Below the pieces are notes generated by a model. The model was not told the DNA's origin and ran no database searches. It was given only the letters and a program-made list of their open reading frames with translations. Positions 54,937-61,641 of a DNA stretch of 64,000 nucleotides are shown here, in pieces. How positions within the stretch are numbered: position 1 is the first letter of the stretch; every line of letters begins with the position of its first letter. Made by a program: the position numbers and the translations under genes. The stretch is from Prevotella sp. (GTDB taxonomy: Bacteria; Bacteroidota; Bacteroidia; Bacteroidales; Dysgonomonadaceae), in assembly GCA_031285625.1 (NCBI GenBank), contig JAITVV010000056.1, forward strand, positions 96,001-160,000. The letters run 5' to 3'.

Positions 54937-55482
54937 TTACTGTTCTTTTTCGACTTGCATGTAATTCAATTCTAACGGAGTTTTCCGTCCGAATATCTTT
55001 ACCATCACTTTTAGTTTCTTCTTCTCTGCGTTCACTTCTTCAATAATTCCTGAAAATCCTGAGAAAGGGCCATTTGTCACCTTCACATTTTCTCCAACAA
55101 AATATTGAATATCCAGACCTACTTCCTGCTCATCCAACTCATCCATTGTGCCAAGTATCCTGTTTACTTCAGATTGGCTTAACGGTTGAGGATTTGTAGT
55201 ATTAGGCAAAAATCCTGCAACAAAATTAATGTTGCGCAATTCATGGATTACTTCTCCCACCAAAGCTGCCTCAATTAAAATATAACCGGGAAGATAAGCT
55301 CTTTCTTTAAGAACTTTCTTTCCGTTACGCATAATGTAGGTTTTCTCTGTGGGGATAAGAACTTGAGAGATGTATTTACCTAAGTCAGTTTTCTTTATCT
55401 CAGACTCAAGATACTCTTTGACTTTATTTTCTTTTCCACTAACGGCACGTAAAACATACCATTTCTTTTCGATTTCAGTCAT
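54937..55482 (-). CDS. nusG: Transcription factor NusG
   Basis: WYV...SG.E, PGYI, KOW motif GPFSGF, IFGRKTP. Confidence 0.98.
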   Translation of the reverse strand: MTEIEKKWYVLRAVSGKENKVKEYLESEIKKTDLGKYISQVLIPTEKTYIMRNGKKVLKERAYLPGYILIEAALVGEVIHELRNINFVAGFLPNTTNPQPLSQSEVNRILGTMDELDEQEVGLDIQYFVGENVKVTNGPFSGFSGIIEEVNAEKKKLKVMVKIFGRKTPLELNYMQVEKEQ

Positions 55483-55499
55483 AGTTTTTGATAAGAGAT

Positions 55500-55691
55500 T
55501 TACAACAGACCATAGAATAATTTAACCACCCTGTCAAATACAGAATCAACACCCCATACAACCAATGCCATCATAATGGAAGCTATCATGACGATGACTG
55601 CACTACTTGTCAATTCTGTGCGAGATGGCCAAGAAACCTTGAATACAAGCTCGTTATAAGAATCCTTAATATAGTTAATTATCTTTTTCAT
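55500..55691 (-). CDS. secE: Preprotein translocase SecE
   Basis: EL..KVSWP plus one TM helix; start MKKIINY downstream of tRNA-Trp. Confidence 0.95.
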   Translation of the reverse strand: MKKIINYIKDSYNELVFKVSWPSRTELTSSAVIVMIASIMMALVVWGVDSVFDRVVKLFYGLL

Positions 55692-55709
55692 CACTCCTGT
55701 TTGAGTTAG

Positions 55710-55781
55710 CACGGGCGGAGAGATTCGAACTCCCGACATTTGGTTTTGGAGACCAACGCTCTACCACTGAACTACGCCCGT
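55710..55781 (-). tRNA. tRNA-Trp(CCA)
   Basis: ACGGGCG acceptor stem, anticodon arm TTGGT-CTCCAAA-ACCAA, TTCGAAT loop. Confidence 0.96.
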
Positions 55782-55829
55782 AAATTAAAGCCGATTATAT
55801 TCCAAACCGGCTTTATAATATAGTAGAAA

Positions 55830-57017
55830 TTATTTATCAATTTCTGTAATCTGACCAGCACCTACTGTACGTCCACCTTCACGGATAGCAAAACGAAGAC
55901 CTACGTTACAAGCAACTGGATAGATAAGCTCAACGTTGATTGTCAAGTTATCACCTGGCATAACCATATCTGTTCCTTCAGGAAGAGTAATCTCACCTGT
56001 TACGTCCAATGTACGGATATAGAACTGAGGACGGTATTTGTTATGGAATGGAGTATGACGTCCACCTTCTTCTTTCTTAAGGATATAAACCTCAGCTTTG
56101 AAGTTAGTGTGAGGAGTAATCTTACCTGGATGGCAAATCACCATACCACGTTTGATTTCATCTTTATCAATACCACGAAGCAATAGACCTACGTTGTCAC
56201 CAGCTTGTCCGTCGTCAAGAATCTTACGGAACATTTCAACTCCAGTTACAACTGATTTTTTGTTTTCAGCTCCAAGTCCGATAATCTGAACTTCTTCACC
56301 TGTTTTGATTTTACCAGTTTCGATACGACCTGTTGCTACAGTACCACGACCTGTGATAGAGAACACATCTTCTACTGGCATAAGGAATGGTTTATCAACA
56401 TCACGTGGAGGAAGTGGAATCCAAGTATCCACAGCGTTCATAAGTTCCATTACTTGGCTAACCCAAGGTTCAACACCGTTCAATGCACCTAGTGCAGATC
56501 CACGGATAACCGGAGTATTATCACCATCGAACTCATAGAATGAAAGAAGTTCTCTCATTTCAAGTTCAACAAGTTCCAACATTTCTTCGTCTTCAACGAT
56601 ATCGCATTTGTTCATGAAAACAACCAATTTAGGTACGTTTACCTGACGTGCCAAAAGGATGTGTTCACGAGTTTGAGGCATCGGACCATCAGTAGCAGCT
56701 ACCACAATGATAGCACCATCCATCTGAGCAGCACCAGTAACCATGTTTTTCACGTAGTCCGCGTGACCTGGACAGTCAACGTGAGCATAGTGACGGTTAG
56801 CTGTTTCATATTCAACATGAGATGTATTGATTGTAATACCACGTTCTTTTTCTTCAGGAGCGTTATCGATTGAGTCGAATGAACGAGCTTGAGAAAGGCC
56901 TGCGTCAGCCAACACTTTAGTGATAGCAGCAGTCAAAGTAGTTTTACCATGGTCAACGTGACCGATTGTACCGATGTTCACGTGCGGTTTCGCCCGGTTA
57001 AAATGTTCTTTTGCCAT
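55830..57017 (-). CDS. tuf: Elongation factor Tu
   Basis: [18 protein letters not shown]. Confidence 0.99.
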
Positions 57018-57087
57018 AATTAATCTTCTATTATTTAGTTAATGTATATATTTAATTCAATCTGAATCAACTATCTGTTATTAAAAG

Positions 57088-57159
<72 letters not shown>

Positions 57160-57312
57160 TTAAATTTCAAAAATTTCACCTCAACAAAATCCTTACCCCT
57201 TTACAAAACAGGAGCTTTTATTATTGAAGCGAAAAAGATGGAAATTAAAGTGAAGAAATATGTAAATCTACTGATTCATAGGTTTTCAAAACTTCTCTTT
57301 CCTTATAGCTTG

Positions 57313-57386
57313 AGCCTCTTGTCGGATTCGAACCAACGACCCCGAGATTACAAATCACGTGCTCTGGCCAACTGAGCTAAAGAGGC
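57313..57386 (-). tRNA. tRNA-Thr(TGT)
   Basis: GCCTCTT/AAGAGGC acceptor stem, loop TTTGTAA, TTCGAAT. Confidence 0.95.
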
Positions 57387-57558
57387 ATACTAGTATAATT
57401 TTGCCGCCATCGCGCTTTTTTCATAGCGAAACGGCGACAAAATTAGAAATTATTTTTTAGAATCGCAATACTTTGTAGATTTATTTTTATTGTATTTTCT
57501 TTTATCGGATCATTCATTCATTCTCAGCATAGTAGATATGCTTTTCATATTACGATTT

Positions 57559-57858
57559 TTACTTTGTTTGAGCTTTCTCTTTTGCTTTCAGCACTTGTTT
57601 CTCTAAAGCCTCTATACTTTGCACTACAGCCTCTTCGAATGTATCGGCTATTTTATTGGCAAAAAGCTCGCCATTTTTAATGTTTAGCTTTATCGAAGCT
57701 TCTTTATTATTCGCTACTTCAGGCTTTACTACCTTGAGAATAACTTCAGCATCTACTATCTGATCTGAAAACTTATCCAATTTTGATATTTTTTTCTCAA
57801 TAAACTCTTTCAATTGAGCTGTTGCATCAAAGTGCACTGACTGAATCGCAATATTCAT
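57559..57858 (-). CDS. hpf: Ribosome hibernation promoting factor (RaiA/HPF)
   Basis: QSVHFDA..QLKEFIEKKISKL, TFEEAV...LEKQ; synteny with rpsU-xerC. Confidence 0.92.
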   Translation of the reverse strand: MNIAIQSVHFDATAQLKEFIEKKISKLDKFSDQIVDAEVILKVVKPEVANNKEASIKLNIKNGELFANKIADTFEEAVVQSIEALEKQVLKAKEKAQTK

Positions 57859-57865
57859 AGTTAAT

Positions 57866-57873
57866 CCTCCTTT
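57866..57873 (-). promoter_or_regulatory. Canonical Shine-Dalgarno of hpf
   Basis: AAAGGAGG located 7 nt before ATG. Confidence 0.75.
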
Positions 57874-57878
57874 ACTTT

Positions 57879-58763
57879 TTAAGCTCTGGGATGAGCTTTG
57901 TTATAAATCTTCTTTAATTCTTCAAATGAAGTATGTGTGTATATTTCTGTAGCCGCAAGGCTTGAATGTCCTAATAGTTCTTTCACCGCATTTATATCCG
58001 CACCGTTATTTAACATCCCTGTAGCAAATGAATGCCTGAGGACATGGGGACTGGTTTTTGACAATGTGGGTATCTGATTCAGACTCTCTGTAACGATACG
58101 ATGCACAAGCATTGGATAAAGCGCCTCTCCATCATTTTTAACAAAGAAGCAACCTGATCCATTCACAATCTCATTATCCCTGACTTCAATATATTGGCGC
58201 AATAACGATTTCATGCTATCGCTTATCGGTATCAGCCGCTGCTTATTCCGCTTTCCTGTCACTTGTATTGTTCCTGCACTGAAATCTACATCGACATCTT
58301 TCAGTCCGATTAATTCAGCACGCCGGATACCTGTTACATAAAACAGCTCTATCATAATATGGTTTCGCAAGGATTCAAATGTATCTTCAACATTACTTTC
58401 GTCCAGAACTTTATCCATATCGGAGTTATTTACGAAGGAAGGGAGCGGCTTAGTTATTTTCGGTCCACTGATCTTTTTCACCGGATTAGATTGCACCTCC
58501 CCTATTCTCAATAAATATTTATAGAATGATTTTAACGCACTTAATTTGCGATTAACCGAACGCGCCGAGATCTTGACCTCCATCAGGGAAACAATCCACA
58601 TGCGAACAATATCGCCATCTACCGACTTAGTATCTGCTTCGGGAAAATGTTCTGCGAGAAAAGCTGTGAACTGCCGCAGGTCTTCAGAATAAGAAATCTC
58701 CGTATGTAAAGAATAGTTCTTTTCATAACGGAGATACTTGATATATTTGTCAATTAACAGCAT
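57879..58763 (-). CDS. xerC: XerC-type tyrosine recombinase (housekeeping)
   Basis: TGIRRAEL, GKRNKQR, HVLRHSFAT, LLGHSSL..T..Y. Confidence 0.9.
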   Translation of the reverse strand: MLLIDKYIKYLRYEKNYSLHTEISYSEDLRQFTAFLAEHFPEADTKSVDGDIVRMWIVSLMEVKISARSVNRKLSALKSFYKYLLRIGEVQSNPVKKISGPKITKPLPSFVNNSDMDKVLDESNVEDTFESLRNHIMIELFYVTGIRRAELIGLKDVDVDFSAGTIQVTGKRNKQRLIPISDSMKSLLRQYIEVRDNEIVNGSGCFFVKNDGEALYPMLVHRIVTESLNQIPTLSKTSPHVLRHSFATGMLNNGADINAVKELLGHSSLAATEIYTHTSFEELKKIYNKAHPRA

Positions 58764-58829
58764 CATTCTACCGAGTTTCTATCCTGAATGACGAAGTTAA
58801 TAATATTATGCGAAAATGACAATTATTTT

Positions 58830-59021
58830 TTAATCTTCTAAGCGGTGCATTTGCTCTACATAAACTGCATGCAATCTGCGTTCTCTTTTCACCACTGATG
58901 GCTTACGGAACTCCTGACGTCTTCTCAGTTCTTTAACAACACCTGTTTTTTCGTATTTTCTTTTAAATTTCTTCAGCGCTTTTTCAATATTTTCGCCTTC
59001 TTTTAATGGAACAATAATCAT
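58830..59021 (-). CDS. rpsU: 30S ribosomal protein bS21
   Basis: EGENIEKALKKFKRK...ELRRRQEF.KPS. Confidence 0.97.
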   Translation of the reverse strand: MIIVPLKEGENIEKALKKFKRKYEKTGVVKELRRRQEFRKPSVVKRERRLHAVYVEQMHRLED

Positions 59022-59119
59022 AATTATTTTTTATTTTATTTGTTTATTTTAATTCAATTTAATCAAGGTCGAACCAATCTGGCTCTTATTCAAAAAAAAA
59101 CAATTCAAGTATTTGGCAT

Positions 59120-59205
59120 AAAAATCCTTTGAACACTGTATAGATAACAGCATCAAACATTCAGTAAATATGTTTTAGTTCAAAAGATCATCAAACCTCC
59201 TCTCT
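59120..59205 (-). promoter_or_regulatory. Structured rpsU leader with extended SD and mini-uORF
   Basis: AGAGAGGAGGT (59205-59195), ATG ATC TTT TGA (59191-59180), 11-bp stem 59188-59178/59134-59124 with two internal hairpins and U tail. Confidence 0.6.
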
Positions 59206-59216
59206 ATTTTGGGGTG

Positions 59217-59248
59217 CAAATTTATGATTTAATATCTTAATGTACAAG
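59217..59248 (-). promoter_or_regulatory. Bacteroidota housekeeping promoter for rpsU
   Basis: -7 box TAAATTTG (59224-59217) and CTTG 20 nt upstream. Confidence 0.65.
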
Positions 59249-59263
59249 ACTTTTTAAAACTTT

Positions 59264-59725
59264 CTATTCTTTTTTCATTTGAATATGTGGTATACCATCC
59301 TCCAGGTACATCTCACTTGTTTGCTTAAATCCATGACTCTCATAGAATTTTTTCAGATACAATTGCCCCGAAATTGTTATTTTGGTTTCCCCCAATACAG
59401 ATGCCTCAATATCTATCGCTTTTGTCATCATTTCATGACCATATCCATATTTACGATATTCCTGAGCGACGATAACCCTCCCGATGCTAGCTTCTTCAAA
59501 ATAACCTCCTGCTTTGAACAGGCGACAATATGCAATAAGTTTACCATCTACATAACCACTAAGATGTAAAGCTTTCTGATCCTTGTAGTCTATATCCAGA
59601 TATGGTGCATTCTGTTCAATTACAAATATTTTACAACGCAAATGTAATATTTCGTAAAGTTCATCCCTTGTGAGTTCCTCATAAGAACTCAATTTCCATG
59701 ATATTTCTTTTTTCATATTTTTCAA
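59264..59725 (-). CDS. GNAT acetyltransferase (ElaA-like)
   Basis: LYEILHLR..IFVIEQ..Y.DID..D, SIGRV, YLEDGIPHI.M. Confidence 0.9.
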   Translation of the reverse strand: MKNMKKEISWKLSSYEELTRDELYEILHLRCKIFVIEQNAPYLDIDYKDQKALHLSGYVDGKLIAYCRLFKAGGYFEEASIGRVIVAQEYRKYGYGHEMMTKAIDIEASVLGETKITISGQLYLKKFYESHGFKQTSEMYLEDGIPHIQMKKE

Positions 59726-60072
59726 ATAATTTTATAGCGCATTATAAATCATCATTTTATCAACAAGCAAATGATTACCGAAAGCCACGCTATAGAAATA
59801 GAATCAAGTATAATTAAAATGTGACAAAAGTAGTTTATAAATTCTGTAATCAACAAGCTTCATTCATATCTTTTCATATAATATCGATTCTTAAAATATT
59901 CAGAGAAAATACAGAAGGTGTACCATTATCTGTCTTCAATGCCCTTATATGTTATATTGCTTTACTTTTTCCTTAAGTTATAAAGATAGAAAAAACAAAC
60001 AAAAACCTGTTCTATCTGTTCTATGAGTGATGTAAAATATTTATATATGACTAATTAATGGAGAGAATGTAA

Positions 60073-60170
60073 TATCTTTGCAAGCTAATTATATGCTGTC
60101 AGTTTTCAACTGATAGTATTAAGTAAAATACAGAAAACTAACAGCTAATAGCTAAATGCTATCAGCTAAA
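60073..60170 (+). promoter_or_regulatory. sufB promoter and structured leader with 7-mer repeats
   Basis: TATCTTTG at 60073-60080; CTAACAG CTAATAG CTAAATG CTATCAG at 60138-60165. Confidence 0.55.
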
Positions 60171-60183
60171 ATAAACAACAATC

Positions 60184-61641
60184 ATGCAAGAAACTCAAGA
60201 TAAAATTTTAGAAGATGTTACCTCCAGCGATTATAAGTATGGTTTTGTAACAGACATTGAGACAGAAGTCATTCCCACAGGTCTGAATGAAGATGTTGTC
60301 CGACTGATTTCGGCAAAGAAGAATGAGCCTGAGTGGATGCTCGAATTTCGCCTGAAGGCATACCACCACTGGCTGACGATGGAGGCTCCACAATGGGCGC
60401 ATCTGGAAATACCTGAAATAGATTACCAGAGCATCAGCTACTACGCTGCCCCTAAAAAGAAAGACGGGCCTAAGAGCCTGGATGAAGTAGACCCTGAGTT
60501 ATTGAAGACTTTCGATAAGCTGGGTGTTCCGCTTCACGAACGCGAACTACTGGCAGGAGTACAAAATATGGCTGTAGATGCTGTAGTAGACAGCGTTTCG
60601 GTAAAAACAACATTCAAGGAAGTACTGGCCGAAAAGGGTATTATATTCTGCTCGTTCAGCGAGGCAGTACAGGAATATCCCGAACTGGTAAAGAAATACC
60701 TAGGCTCGGTAGTTCCGTACAGGGATAATTTCTTTGGTGCGCTAAATTCCGCAGTGTTTAGTGACGGTTCATTCGTATATATCCCCAAGGATGTACGCTG
60801 CCCGATGGAGTTGTCTACTTATTTCCGTATCAATGCGGCTAATACAGGACAGTTTGAGCGCACATTGATTGTTGCCGACGATAATGCTTATGTAAGTTAT
60901 CTCGAAGGCTGTACAGCGCCTATGCGTGACGAGAACCAATTGCATGCTGCCATAGTGGAGATCATAGCACTCGACCATGCGGAAGTGAAATATTCAACCG
61001 TACAGAACTGGTATCCGGGCGATAAGGAAGGTAAGGGAGGGATTTACAACTTCGTTACCAAGCGCGGATTATGCAAGGGAAAAGGCTCGAAAATATCGTG
61101 GACTCAAGTAGAGACAGGTTCTGCCATTACATGGAAATATCCGTCTTGCATCCTGGCAGGAGACGATTCGATAGGCGAATTCTATTCTGTGGCTGTAACC
61201 AACAATTACCAGCAGGCTGATACAGGTACCAAAATGGTGCATGTAGGAAAGAATACAAAAAGCCGCATCGTATCGAAGGGTATTTCGGCAGGATTCAGCC
61301 AGAACTCATACAGAGGGCTTGTAAAAGTCTCTCCAAAGGCCGAAGGAGCACGTAACCACTCACAGTGCGACAGTTTGTTGCTGGGCGACAAGTGCGGTGC
61401 GCATACATTCCCTTATTCGGATATTGCCAATCCGAGTGCTATTATCGAGCATGAGGCTACCACCTCAAAAATCAGTGAAGACCAGATACTGTACTGTAAC
61501 CAGCGTGGCATAGGTACGGAAGAGGCTGTAGGACTGATTGTAAACGGTTATGCCAAAGAGGTGATGCAAAACCTGCCAATGGAGTTTGCTGTAGAAGCTC
61601 AGAAGCTATTGCAGATAAGCCTGGAGGGTAGTGTAGGATAA
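60184..61641 (+). CDS. sufB: Fe-S cluster assembly protein SufB
   Basis: [40 protein letters not shown]. Confidence 0.98.

Follow-up and report, generated by a model that had tools for sequence, protein, structure and literature searches.

The minus strand of a 64,000-nucleotide (nt) stretch of Prevotella sp. DNA, assigned by GTDB to the family Dysgonomonadaceae (contig JAITVV010000056.1, positions 96,001 to 160,000; this whole stretch is called the window here), carries ahead of the ribosomal protein gene rpsU (bS21) a leader whose predicted 5′ end bears an 11-nt purine tract complementary to the 3′ tail of 16S rRNA. The tract begins 184 nt before the rpsU ATG and is followed by a three-codon open reading frame (ORF), the mini-ORF below, that forms one strand of a covarying helix. 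We propose, with about even confidence, that this is a conserved cis-regulatory leader in which the tract would act as an extended Shine-Dalgarno (SD) sequence and as a sensor of 30S subunits lacking bS21. In Flavobacterium johnsoniae, rpsU is autoregulated by bS21-lacking ribosomes (PMC9976891 and two 2026 Nucleic Acids Research papers, PMC13000453 and PMC13000457). The passages of McNutt 2023 (PMC9976891) that bear on distribution place this autoregulation in four of five orders and count no Bacteroidales under the rpsU criteria, and the 2023 and 2026 papers describe the Bacteroidales as having no SD upstream of rpsU. The remote variant of the bS21 circuit that the sequence suggests here, in an order said to lack that circuit, is new.

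All leader coordinates are on the minus strand. The promoter, which we take to be of the Bacteroidetes type, was read from the sequence as a −33 TTG (59245..59247) 20 nt upstream of a −7 box, TAAATTTG (59217..59224), and the position of the −7 box alone yields a predicted transcription start at 59209..59211. A consensus promoter scan gave sigma-70 matches at chance level. The G+C-rich motif GCAnCCC follows the rpsU −7 box in the window (59211-59216) and at nearly all loci of the order, and it could be a discriminator-like element. Next come the tract, AGAGAGGAGGT (59195..59205), which is the putative dock for a free 16S tail on the evidence of its complementarity and family-wide conservation, and the mini-ORF, ATG ATC TTT TGA (59180..59191), whose ATG stands 4 nt after GGAGG. 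Within the mini-ORF lies the 5′ strand of helix P1, ATCTTTTGAAC (59178..59188), and the 3′ strand is GTTCAAAGGAT (59124..59134). P1 encloses hairpin P2 (59155..59175; AAACAT, 59175-59170, with ATGTTT, 59160-59155) and hairpin P3 (59135..59151; GCTGT, 59151-59147, with ACAGT, 59139-59135). This three-way junction is the minimum-free-energy (MFE) fold of the 194-nt leader, and P1 and P3 are also supported by covariation. Compared with shuffled sequences, the fold energy has a z-score of −2.25 for the whole leader and −1.5 for the 5′ domain by itself. A run of five T's follows P1 (59120..59124) and is a feature of the window species rather than of the genus. Farther down, the MFE fold has a hairpin, H4 (GAGCCA with TGGTTC, 59071..59085), and an A-rich, mostly unpaired stretch without an SD (59022..59070) that leads to the rpsU ATG (59021-59019). 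A nine-T run in mid-leader (59092-59100), paired in the centroid fold with the A-rich bases ahead of rpsU, was not found in the other genus members read. An initial annotation, made from the letters of the window, had pointed to a −7 box with a leader of ~190 nt, an rpsU ATG without an SD, the mini-ORF 4 nt past GGAGG, and an 11-base-pair (bp) stem enclosing two hairpins. The boxes, from which the start is placed, the A-rich sequence before the ATG, and the mini-ORF with its ATG at 59191 were all as described, and the leader MFE fold reproduced the stem exactly.

Within the genus of the window, rpsU was found in 33 of 35 genomes (the window's own included), and all 33 upstream regions were read. 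Every one of them has the tract, which lies 11 to 13 nt after the −7 box or a variant of it in 32 members and 27 nt after it in locus L046. In 22 of 23 same-genus sequences the −7 box is followed by GGAGG at 16 to 17 nt, L003 reading TAAATTTA. The mini-ORF is likewise present in 33/33, with the ATG at +5 past GGAGG, two sense codons, and the stop at +14 (TGA in 31 members, TAG in 1, and TAA in 1). The ATG columns are invariant although their partner bases in the extended P1 vary. Conservation in relatives was the check that the initial annotation had proposed for itself, and SD, upstream ORF (uORF), and stem all came through it. Its alternative TTG-AAC-TAA frame fared differently, as TTG-NNN-TAA occurs in only 4 of the 33 members. 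The codons ATC TTT TGA also resemble a prfB shift site, a candidate that was dropped because they are not kept in variants such as GAT TCT TGA. A composite motif consisting of the tract, ATG, six bases, a stop-like triplet, and NC has a single occurrence, at rpsU, in each of 32 of the 35 genus genomes, while the reversed control gave one match in all; the three misses are the two genomes in which rpsU was not found and one with a different last base.

The leader structure shows compensatory change. Pairs were counted over P1, its extension, and P3 (22 pairs; P2 was left out as poorly aligned), and 87.6% of cells are paired, versus 37.5 to 52.6% when the partner strand is slid by 1 to 3 columns. 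Changes on both sides occur in 14 of the 22 pairs, and 0 of 500 shuffles reached these pairing and covariation values. P3 by itself has both-sided changes in all 6 counted pairs and 89.8% of cells paired. When the 33 leaders were folded separately, at least 9 of the 11 P1 pairs were kept in the MFE folds of 26 members, 23 of which also had the two enclosed hairpins, and the tract was unpaired in 28 of 33. Where part of P1 was recovered, its 3′ strand lies 89 to 116 nt before the rpsU ATG. RNAalifold, run on an initial MAFFT alignment of the complete leaders, missed P1 and gave P3 and a small local hairpin; this hairpin (GTTTGA/TTGAAC) competes with P1 and has no both-sided change.

The pairing potential of the tract is best judged against actual 16S tails. 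The 16S gene is present in four of five same-genus genomes searched, and all six copies read from these four genomes end in ...ACACCTCCTTTCT before the spacer, the canonical tail. Against ACCUCCUUUCU of this tail the tract forms 11 pairs, one of them G-U, exactly the pairing that the initial annotation had deduced from a typical Bacteroidia tail. The duplex has an energy of −17.5 kcal/mol (ViennaRNA duplexfold, same-genus tail), and energies across 112 family tracts range from −15.9 to −17.6 kcal/mol. In the parts of McNutt 2023 (PMC9976891) devoted to pairing energies, values below −13 kcal/mol are typical for rpsU; those energies come from free_scan and ours from duplexfold, a different program. 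By this measure the tract has the F. johnsoniae-type pairing (at least 9 nt with the 16S tail, below about −13 kcal/mol). Two perfect 13-nt complements of the 16S tail (AGAAAGGAGGTGT) occur elsewhere in the window's own genome, where composition predicts ~0.1: the copy on contig C48, near 14.76 kb, lies between genes and is followed by no start codon, and the other, on the minus strand of contig C10, is apparently at the end of a coding region, with no long open frame flagged by the script.

In the family as a whole, 148 of 170 genomes yielded an rpsU gene, and 118 upstream regions were fetched, namely all 33 of the genus and 85 of 115 others, hand-picked rather than random. One was cut by a contig end, leaving 117 usable, and the tract is present in 112 of these. 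In 109 it heads a long leader, with 135 to 349 nt (median, 183 nt) between tract and ATG, and in nearly all family sequences it lies 10 to 13 nt after the −7 box, whatever the leader length. Its link to rpsU thus persists through large changes in leader structure, over 19 genera. The five usable regions without a tract comprise two short leaders, two cases of rpsU behind rplT, and one long leader; in L073 and L131, from one genus of the family, rpsU directly follows an rplT-like frame and has neither a promoter box of its own nor a tract. Tract positions opposite an rRNA C are G in all 112 sequences, an invariance to be read with the fact that the search pattern demanded those G's. Six sequences failed the pattern: L102 is intact apart from its first base and the others lack the whole element, there being no single-position near-miss. 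Changes are confined to U-opposed sites, where A and G exchange, and the first position is loose. Since A and G alternate only opposite U, the variation fits pairing with an unchanging pyrimidine strand, whereas a partner in cis would be expected to have covaried with the tract.

Three species of one sister genus (L084, L087, and L093) carry the same promoter with a short leader and a perfect tract, AGAAAGGAGGT, whose GGAGG lies exactly 10 nt before the rpsU ATG. Judged by sequence, these should be Bacteroidales to which the published rpsU-autoregulation criteria apply. Their SD occupies G−15 to G−11, as in F. johnsoniae, where suppressor mutations in the rpsU SD fall at G−11, G−12, and G−15. 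Because these relatives have the same promoter and tract next to the ATG, we regard the remote tract as a homolog of a functional rpsU SD.

In the sister genera with long leaders, the bases from GAGG on (typically GAGGTTATTGT) are complementary to a box (typically ACAATAATCTC) that mostly lies 12 to 45 nt before the rpsU ATG. The helix exists in compensating versions, GTTTTGATTAA/TTAATCAAAAC, GGTTACTG/CAGTAATC, GAGGTATGGTT/AACCATATCTT, TTATTGAAT/ATTCAATAA, and TTATTGCAA/TTGCAATAA. An L-INS-i alignment of 67 sister-genus leaders of up to 215 nt (nine longer ones were left out, and no structure was used) has 79.3% of cells paired over 11 columns, versus 31.6 to 52.3% when slid. Taken sequence by sequence, helices of 8 to 12 pairs are mostly within the range of shuffled AU-rich leaders, the energy z-scores are weak, and RNAalifold on the 67 leaders gave no structure, so the case for this helix is one of position and compensation across genera. 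If it forms, docking of a ribosome on the tract and the long-range helix would be mutually exclusive. Its partner strand abuts the rpsU start region, whereas the 3′ strand of P1 in the window's genus lies ~90 to 115 nt away, with H4 and about 50 unpaired A-rich bases in between. At the position of H4 (about −75 to −50), most genus MFE folds have, by inspection, a hairpin of very different sequence, and an alignment fold of the H4 region predicted no consensus structure. The hairpin often has a G-rich 5′ strand and a C-rich 3′ strand (e.g., GAGG...CCTC), and some species have a 3′ strand also able to pair with the 5′ tract, which suggests H4 as a possible remnant of the long-range helix.

A short ORF after the tract is present in 48 of 48 sequences of five genera (33, 7, 2, 2, and 4). 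These ORFs start with ATG or TTG at +1 to +6 and have 2 or 3 further sense codons, and their stop, for which TGA, TAG, and TAA are all used, always begins at +13 to +15. With GGAGG at −15 to −11 as in F. johnsoniae, the P site would fall on +11 to +13 and the A site on +14 to +16, which places the stop of the mini-ORF in the A site with the SD in its relaxed register. By this observation, made after the fact, a ribosome could stay docked through the whole mini-ORF, and on sequence grounds its translation in the window's genus is plausible. Elsewhere in the family, 19 sequences have a TTG at +4 with TAA directly behind it at +7, and two have CTG in place of that TTG. The TTG-TAA start-stop was demoted as a candidate, because TTATTG is plain spacer in short-leader species and other genera have long ORFs or lack a start codon.

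The mechanism that we envisage would work as follows. Ordinary Bacteroidia ribosomes, whose anti-SD is covered by bS21, bS18, and bS6, would ignore the tract, whereas bS21-less 30S subunits, with a free 16S tail, would dock on it at the 5′ end of the mRNA. Docking would bring the AUG 4 nt downstream into reach, and the stop would be met two codons later. At the stop, SD and P site would be 10 nt apart, as they are when F. johnsoniae ribosomes initiate on rpsU, so that the ribosome could be parked with its SD helix intact. Because the mini-ORF doubles as the 5′ strand of P1, its occupation by a ribosome would require P1 to melt and the three-way junction to open. The output would be positive and posttranscriptional, more bS21-less ribosomes giving more rpsU expression, a sign that we infer from homeostasis logic and the F. 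johnsoniae precedent. In its most specific form, the proposal is that a parking uORF reads ribosome composition, the docked bS21-less 30S subunit holding the helix open and raising bS21 production ~180 nt away, and this we advance tentatively, with somewhat less than even confidence. As to how the signal might reach rpsU, remodelling of the leader or tethering of the ribosome is possible though doubtful, and an exposed 5′ end protected from 5′-end-dependent RNases is to be viewed with the same reserve. Antitermination at an intrinsic terminator is an unlikely route, and the remainder of our confidence goes to other routes.

A number of observations weigh against this mechanism or parts of it. 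The 16S gene was searched for in the window's own assembly (96 contigs, 94% complete, 4.84 Mb) and is not there. Purine tracts of the class RGRRRGGRGGT are not rare, with 24 sites on both strands of the 4.84-Mb genome versus 20.7 expected in a count not anchored to genes. The arithmetic chance of one such site in the 242-nt spacer is ~6e-4; the tract stands above chance because it is conserved, and a single genome alone proves little. The shuffle counts overstate the support for P1 and P3, since the species are related. Among the sister genera the gap between GGAGG and the start codon ranges between 0 and 5 nt, a start codon after the tract is missing in 8 of 8 sequences of one genus, two genera have long ORFs there, and the TTG that follows the tract in many genera is found in the short-form spacer as well. 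The variable gap, the absent start codons, and the long ORFs mean that translation of the mini-ORF is not a family-wide requirement. Even in the window, 4 nt from GGAGG to AUG is a tight spacing for initiation, going by E. coli data. The distance of ~90 to 115 nt between the 3′ strand of P1 and the rpsU start also counts here. When the 5′ ribosome footprint was forced to be single stranded and the unpaired probabilities of rpsU −25 to +3 were compared, these went from 0.87 to 0.76, up in 4 and down in 24 of 33 members, so that no unmasking was seen; a clear rise in rpsU start accessibility was found in only one sister genus. According to the relevant passages of McNutt 2023 (PMC9976891), initiation on mRNAs without an SD is poor when ribosomes lack bS21, and a simple hand-over to the rpsU start, which has no SD, is therefore harder to defend. 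Finally, the 17 public RNA runs listed are all stored as contigs, which show no start, end, strand, or level, and the transcription start is an inferred one; four runs were examined, and the contigs of one span 59075-59207 and 59178-59790, which is uninformative on transcription start or attenuation.

Part of the same evidence could be read as a pure 5′ stabilizer of the STAB-SD type, in which the tract holds a 30S subunit and shields the mRNA from 5′-end decay, the mini-ORF and P1 being accessory or incidental. The near-constant spacing of 10 to 13 nt between −7 box and tract, in leaders with 135 to 349 nt between tract and ATG, suits such a role, and so does the genus that keeps the tract without a start codon in 8/8 sequences. 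The window's own genome encodes RNase E/G and RNase Y (above curated cut-offs), and, in the part of PMC5737220 that concerns it, ribosomes at a strong SD block the 5′ decay of Bacillus subtilis hbs mRNA. The 5′ position may instead be inherited from a short ancestral leader, however, and a stabilizer would leave the invariant AUG, the fixed position of the stop, and the covarying helix of the sister genera unexplained. RNase J, the enzyme blocked in the Bacillus cases, had no match above the cut-off in the genome. On balance we regard a pure stabilizer as improbable.

The initial annotation had read the end of P1 as a terminator-like junction, and a transcription attenuator could be built from it: P1 and the U-run would terminate transcription, and a bS21-less ribosome on the mini-ORF would melt P1 and let RNA polymerase read on into rpsU. 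The window does have TTTTT after P1, and the overlap of the mini-ORF with the 5′ strand of P1 is as in leader-peptide attenuators. Yet a run of at least four T's after P1 is found in only 3 of the 33 genus members, and at least five T's within the next 8 nt in 10 of 33. In most species the stretch after P1 (GATTATTATA and similar) pairs instead with TTTRATGATC, which lengthens P1 over the AUG up to the end of the tract. P1 is moreover AU-rich and closes a multibranch loop, a terminator scan found no terminator-like site there, and the partner strand in the sister genera adjoins the rpsU start and not a U-run. Because the U-run is not kept and those bases extend P1, a conserved intrinsic terminator is rejected, that part of the initial annotation falls, and we consider an attenuator very unlikely; the proposed sensor, by comparison across relatives, has good support.

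A classical ribosomal protein leader, in which bS21 or another protein binds the junction or the tract and the 16S complementarity is incidental, has in its favor that structured, covarying leaders are common before ribosomal protein genes and that P1, P2, and P3 form a three-way junction. The tract is a complement, not a mimic, of the 16S tail contacted by bS21, though, its variation obeys wobble rules against the rRNA, and the same tract stands in a plain SD position in three relatives. An Rfam 15 scan of 55000-61000, in which only three tRNAs pass the thresholds, gave no match to the leader up to E = 10, and the 2020 survey of ribosomal leaders, with its 20 new r-leaders, has no occurrence of "S21"; this explanation is highly improbable. 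That the 5′ domain is a decoy or small RNA, released by termination or processing to soak up free 16S tails with no action in cis, is scarcely credible, for although the window has a U-run after P1, this run is not conserved, and the element is found just once in a genome, invariably in the rpsU leader, a link that holds across 19 genera despite large leader changes.

The proposed sensing of bS21-less subunits by the rpsU leader has several parallels among known systems. It shares with F. johnsoniae rpsU the gene, the extended SD, a strong pairing energy, a leader starting a few bases before the SD, and, going by residue number in the window's own translation (54 of 63), a bS21 with the tyrosine that is a Bacteroidetes signature and stacks on A1534. 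It differs in that the SD of the window lies 184 nt from the ATG, outside initiation distance, rpsU itself has no SD, and the SD serves a three-codon ORF inside a covarying helix. The STAB-SD of cryIIIA, reportedly the work of Agaisse and Lereclus in 1996, and of other Bacillus mRNAs is likewise an SD-like tract near the 5′ end and far from the gene start that is thought to hold a 30S subunit. Here binding should be restricted to ribosomes with an exposed anti-SD, the tract has an AUG and a stop behind it, and RNase J gave no match above the cut-off; as for the independence from a start codon expected of a STAB-SD, the AUG is present in 33/33 members of the window's genus and in none of 8 in another. 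In the translational attenuation of ermC and cat, a ribosome on a short leader ORF melts a helix. The mini-ORF is in the same way the 5′ strand of the helix to be melted, but the other strand in the window leaves the rpsU start uncovered (0.87 unpaired), although sister genera have it near that start, and the trigger would be ribosome composition and not a drug-stalled peptide. At ribosome standby sites, such as that of tisB, a single-stranded site upstream binds a 30S subunit for a start that is structured or lies far away. Binding through an SD helix of 11 bp, selective for a single ribosome subpopulation, would be unlike these, and a hand-over across ~170 nt is hypothetical. Full-text literature searches gave no description of such an rpsU leader, and the terms "uORF" and "upstream open" are absent from the three F. 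johnsoniae rpsU papers, supplementary figures aside, in agreement with the statement of the initial annotation that no uORF version of the circuit had been described.

Outside the family the picture is sparser. Of 80 named Bacteroidales records, 10 have a 10-nt form of the tract upstream of rpsU; they are labeled Dysgonomonas (4), Proteiniphilum (1), Sodaliphilus (1), Rikenellaceae (1), Candidatus Alistipes (1), and Prevotella and Bacillota, the last two being labels that look wrong for the rpsU gene in question. Records of Bacteroides, Prevotella (bar one), Parabacteroides, and Paludibacter have no tract, and their −7 boxes are mostly 40 to 80 nt before the ATG. The remote tract was not found in sixteen other families of the order, represented by one genome each. 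In the Sodaliphilus (L163), Candidatus Alistipes equi (L212), and Rikenellaceae (L168) records, a GGAGGT-containing tract lies 282, 154, and 171 nt from the ATG, respectively, adjoining the −7 box in the first two; either these labels are loose or the remote arrangement occurs outside the family. L137, from another family of the order, has a strong adjacent SD, AAAAGGAGGTG, 9 nt ahead of the rpsU ATG. Further loci of other families (L027, L030, L132, L136, and L140) have purine runs (AGAAAGAGAGAG, AGAAAGAGGG, and AGAAAGG) 10 to 25 nt before rpsU that match only the last 6 to 7 bases of the 16S tail and may be a weaker form of the same 16S contact.

The genes around the leader all lie on the minus strand. 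Their order is a GNAT acetyltransferase gene with its end at 59264, the 242-nt spacer, rpsU (58830..59021, 63 amino acids; Pfam Ribosomal_S21, E = 5e-16), a gene for a tyrosine recombinase of the XerC/D type (57879..58766; Pfam Phage_integrase and Phage_int_SAM_1), and an hpf-like ribosome hibernation factor gene (57559..57858; Pfam Ribosomal_S30AE). Elsewhere in the same genome (contig C52, near 90.6 kb; L141), AAGGAG stands 9 nt before the ATG of rpsR (bS18), and rpsF, just upstream of rpsR, has no SD; the rpsR SD agrees with a published remark that an SD at rpsR is frequent in the Bacteroidales.

Among bacteria, specialized ribosomes are most clearly exemplified by the bS21 circuit of Flavobacterium. 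The circuit has appeared limited to four of the five Bacteroidia orders because scans covered only the bases next to the start codon; the methods passages of McNutt 2023 (PMC9976891) describe a scan of the initiation region and a mock window at 25 to 40 nt. Our results show a Bacteroidales family that keeps an extended SD under purifying selection 135 to 349 nt from rpsU. By implication, an SD can serve as a distant sensor, and start-proximal scans undercount SD-based control in lineages thought to be SD-less. Within this one family there is a natural series in which the SD is adjacent, remote with a long-range helix, or remote with a mini-ORF, and in cultured members of the genus the model could be put to a direct test. 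If the parking uORF is real, it would extend specialized-ribosome autoregulation to the one Bacteroidia order said to be without it, and it would be the first bacterial uORF to be triggered by the protein makeup of the ribosome.

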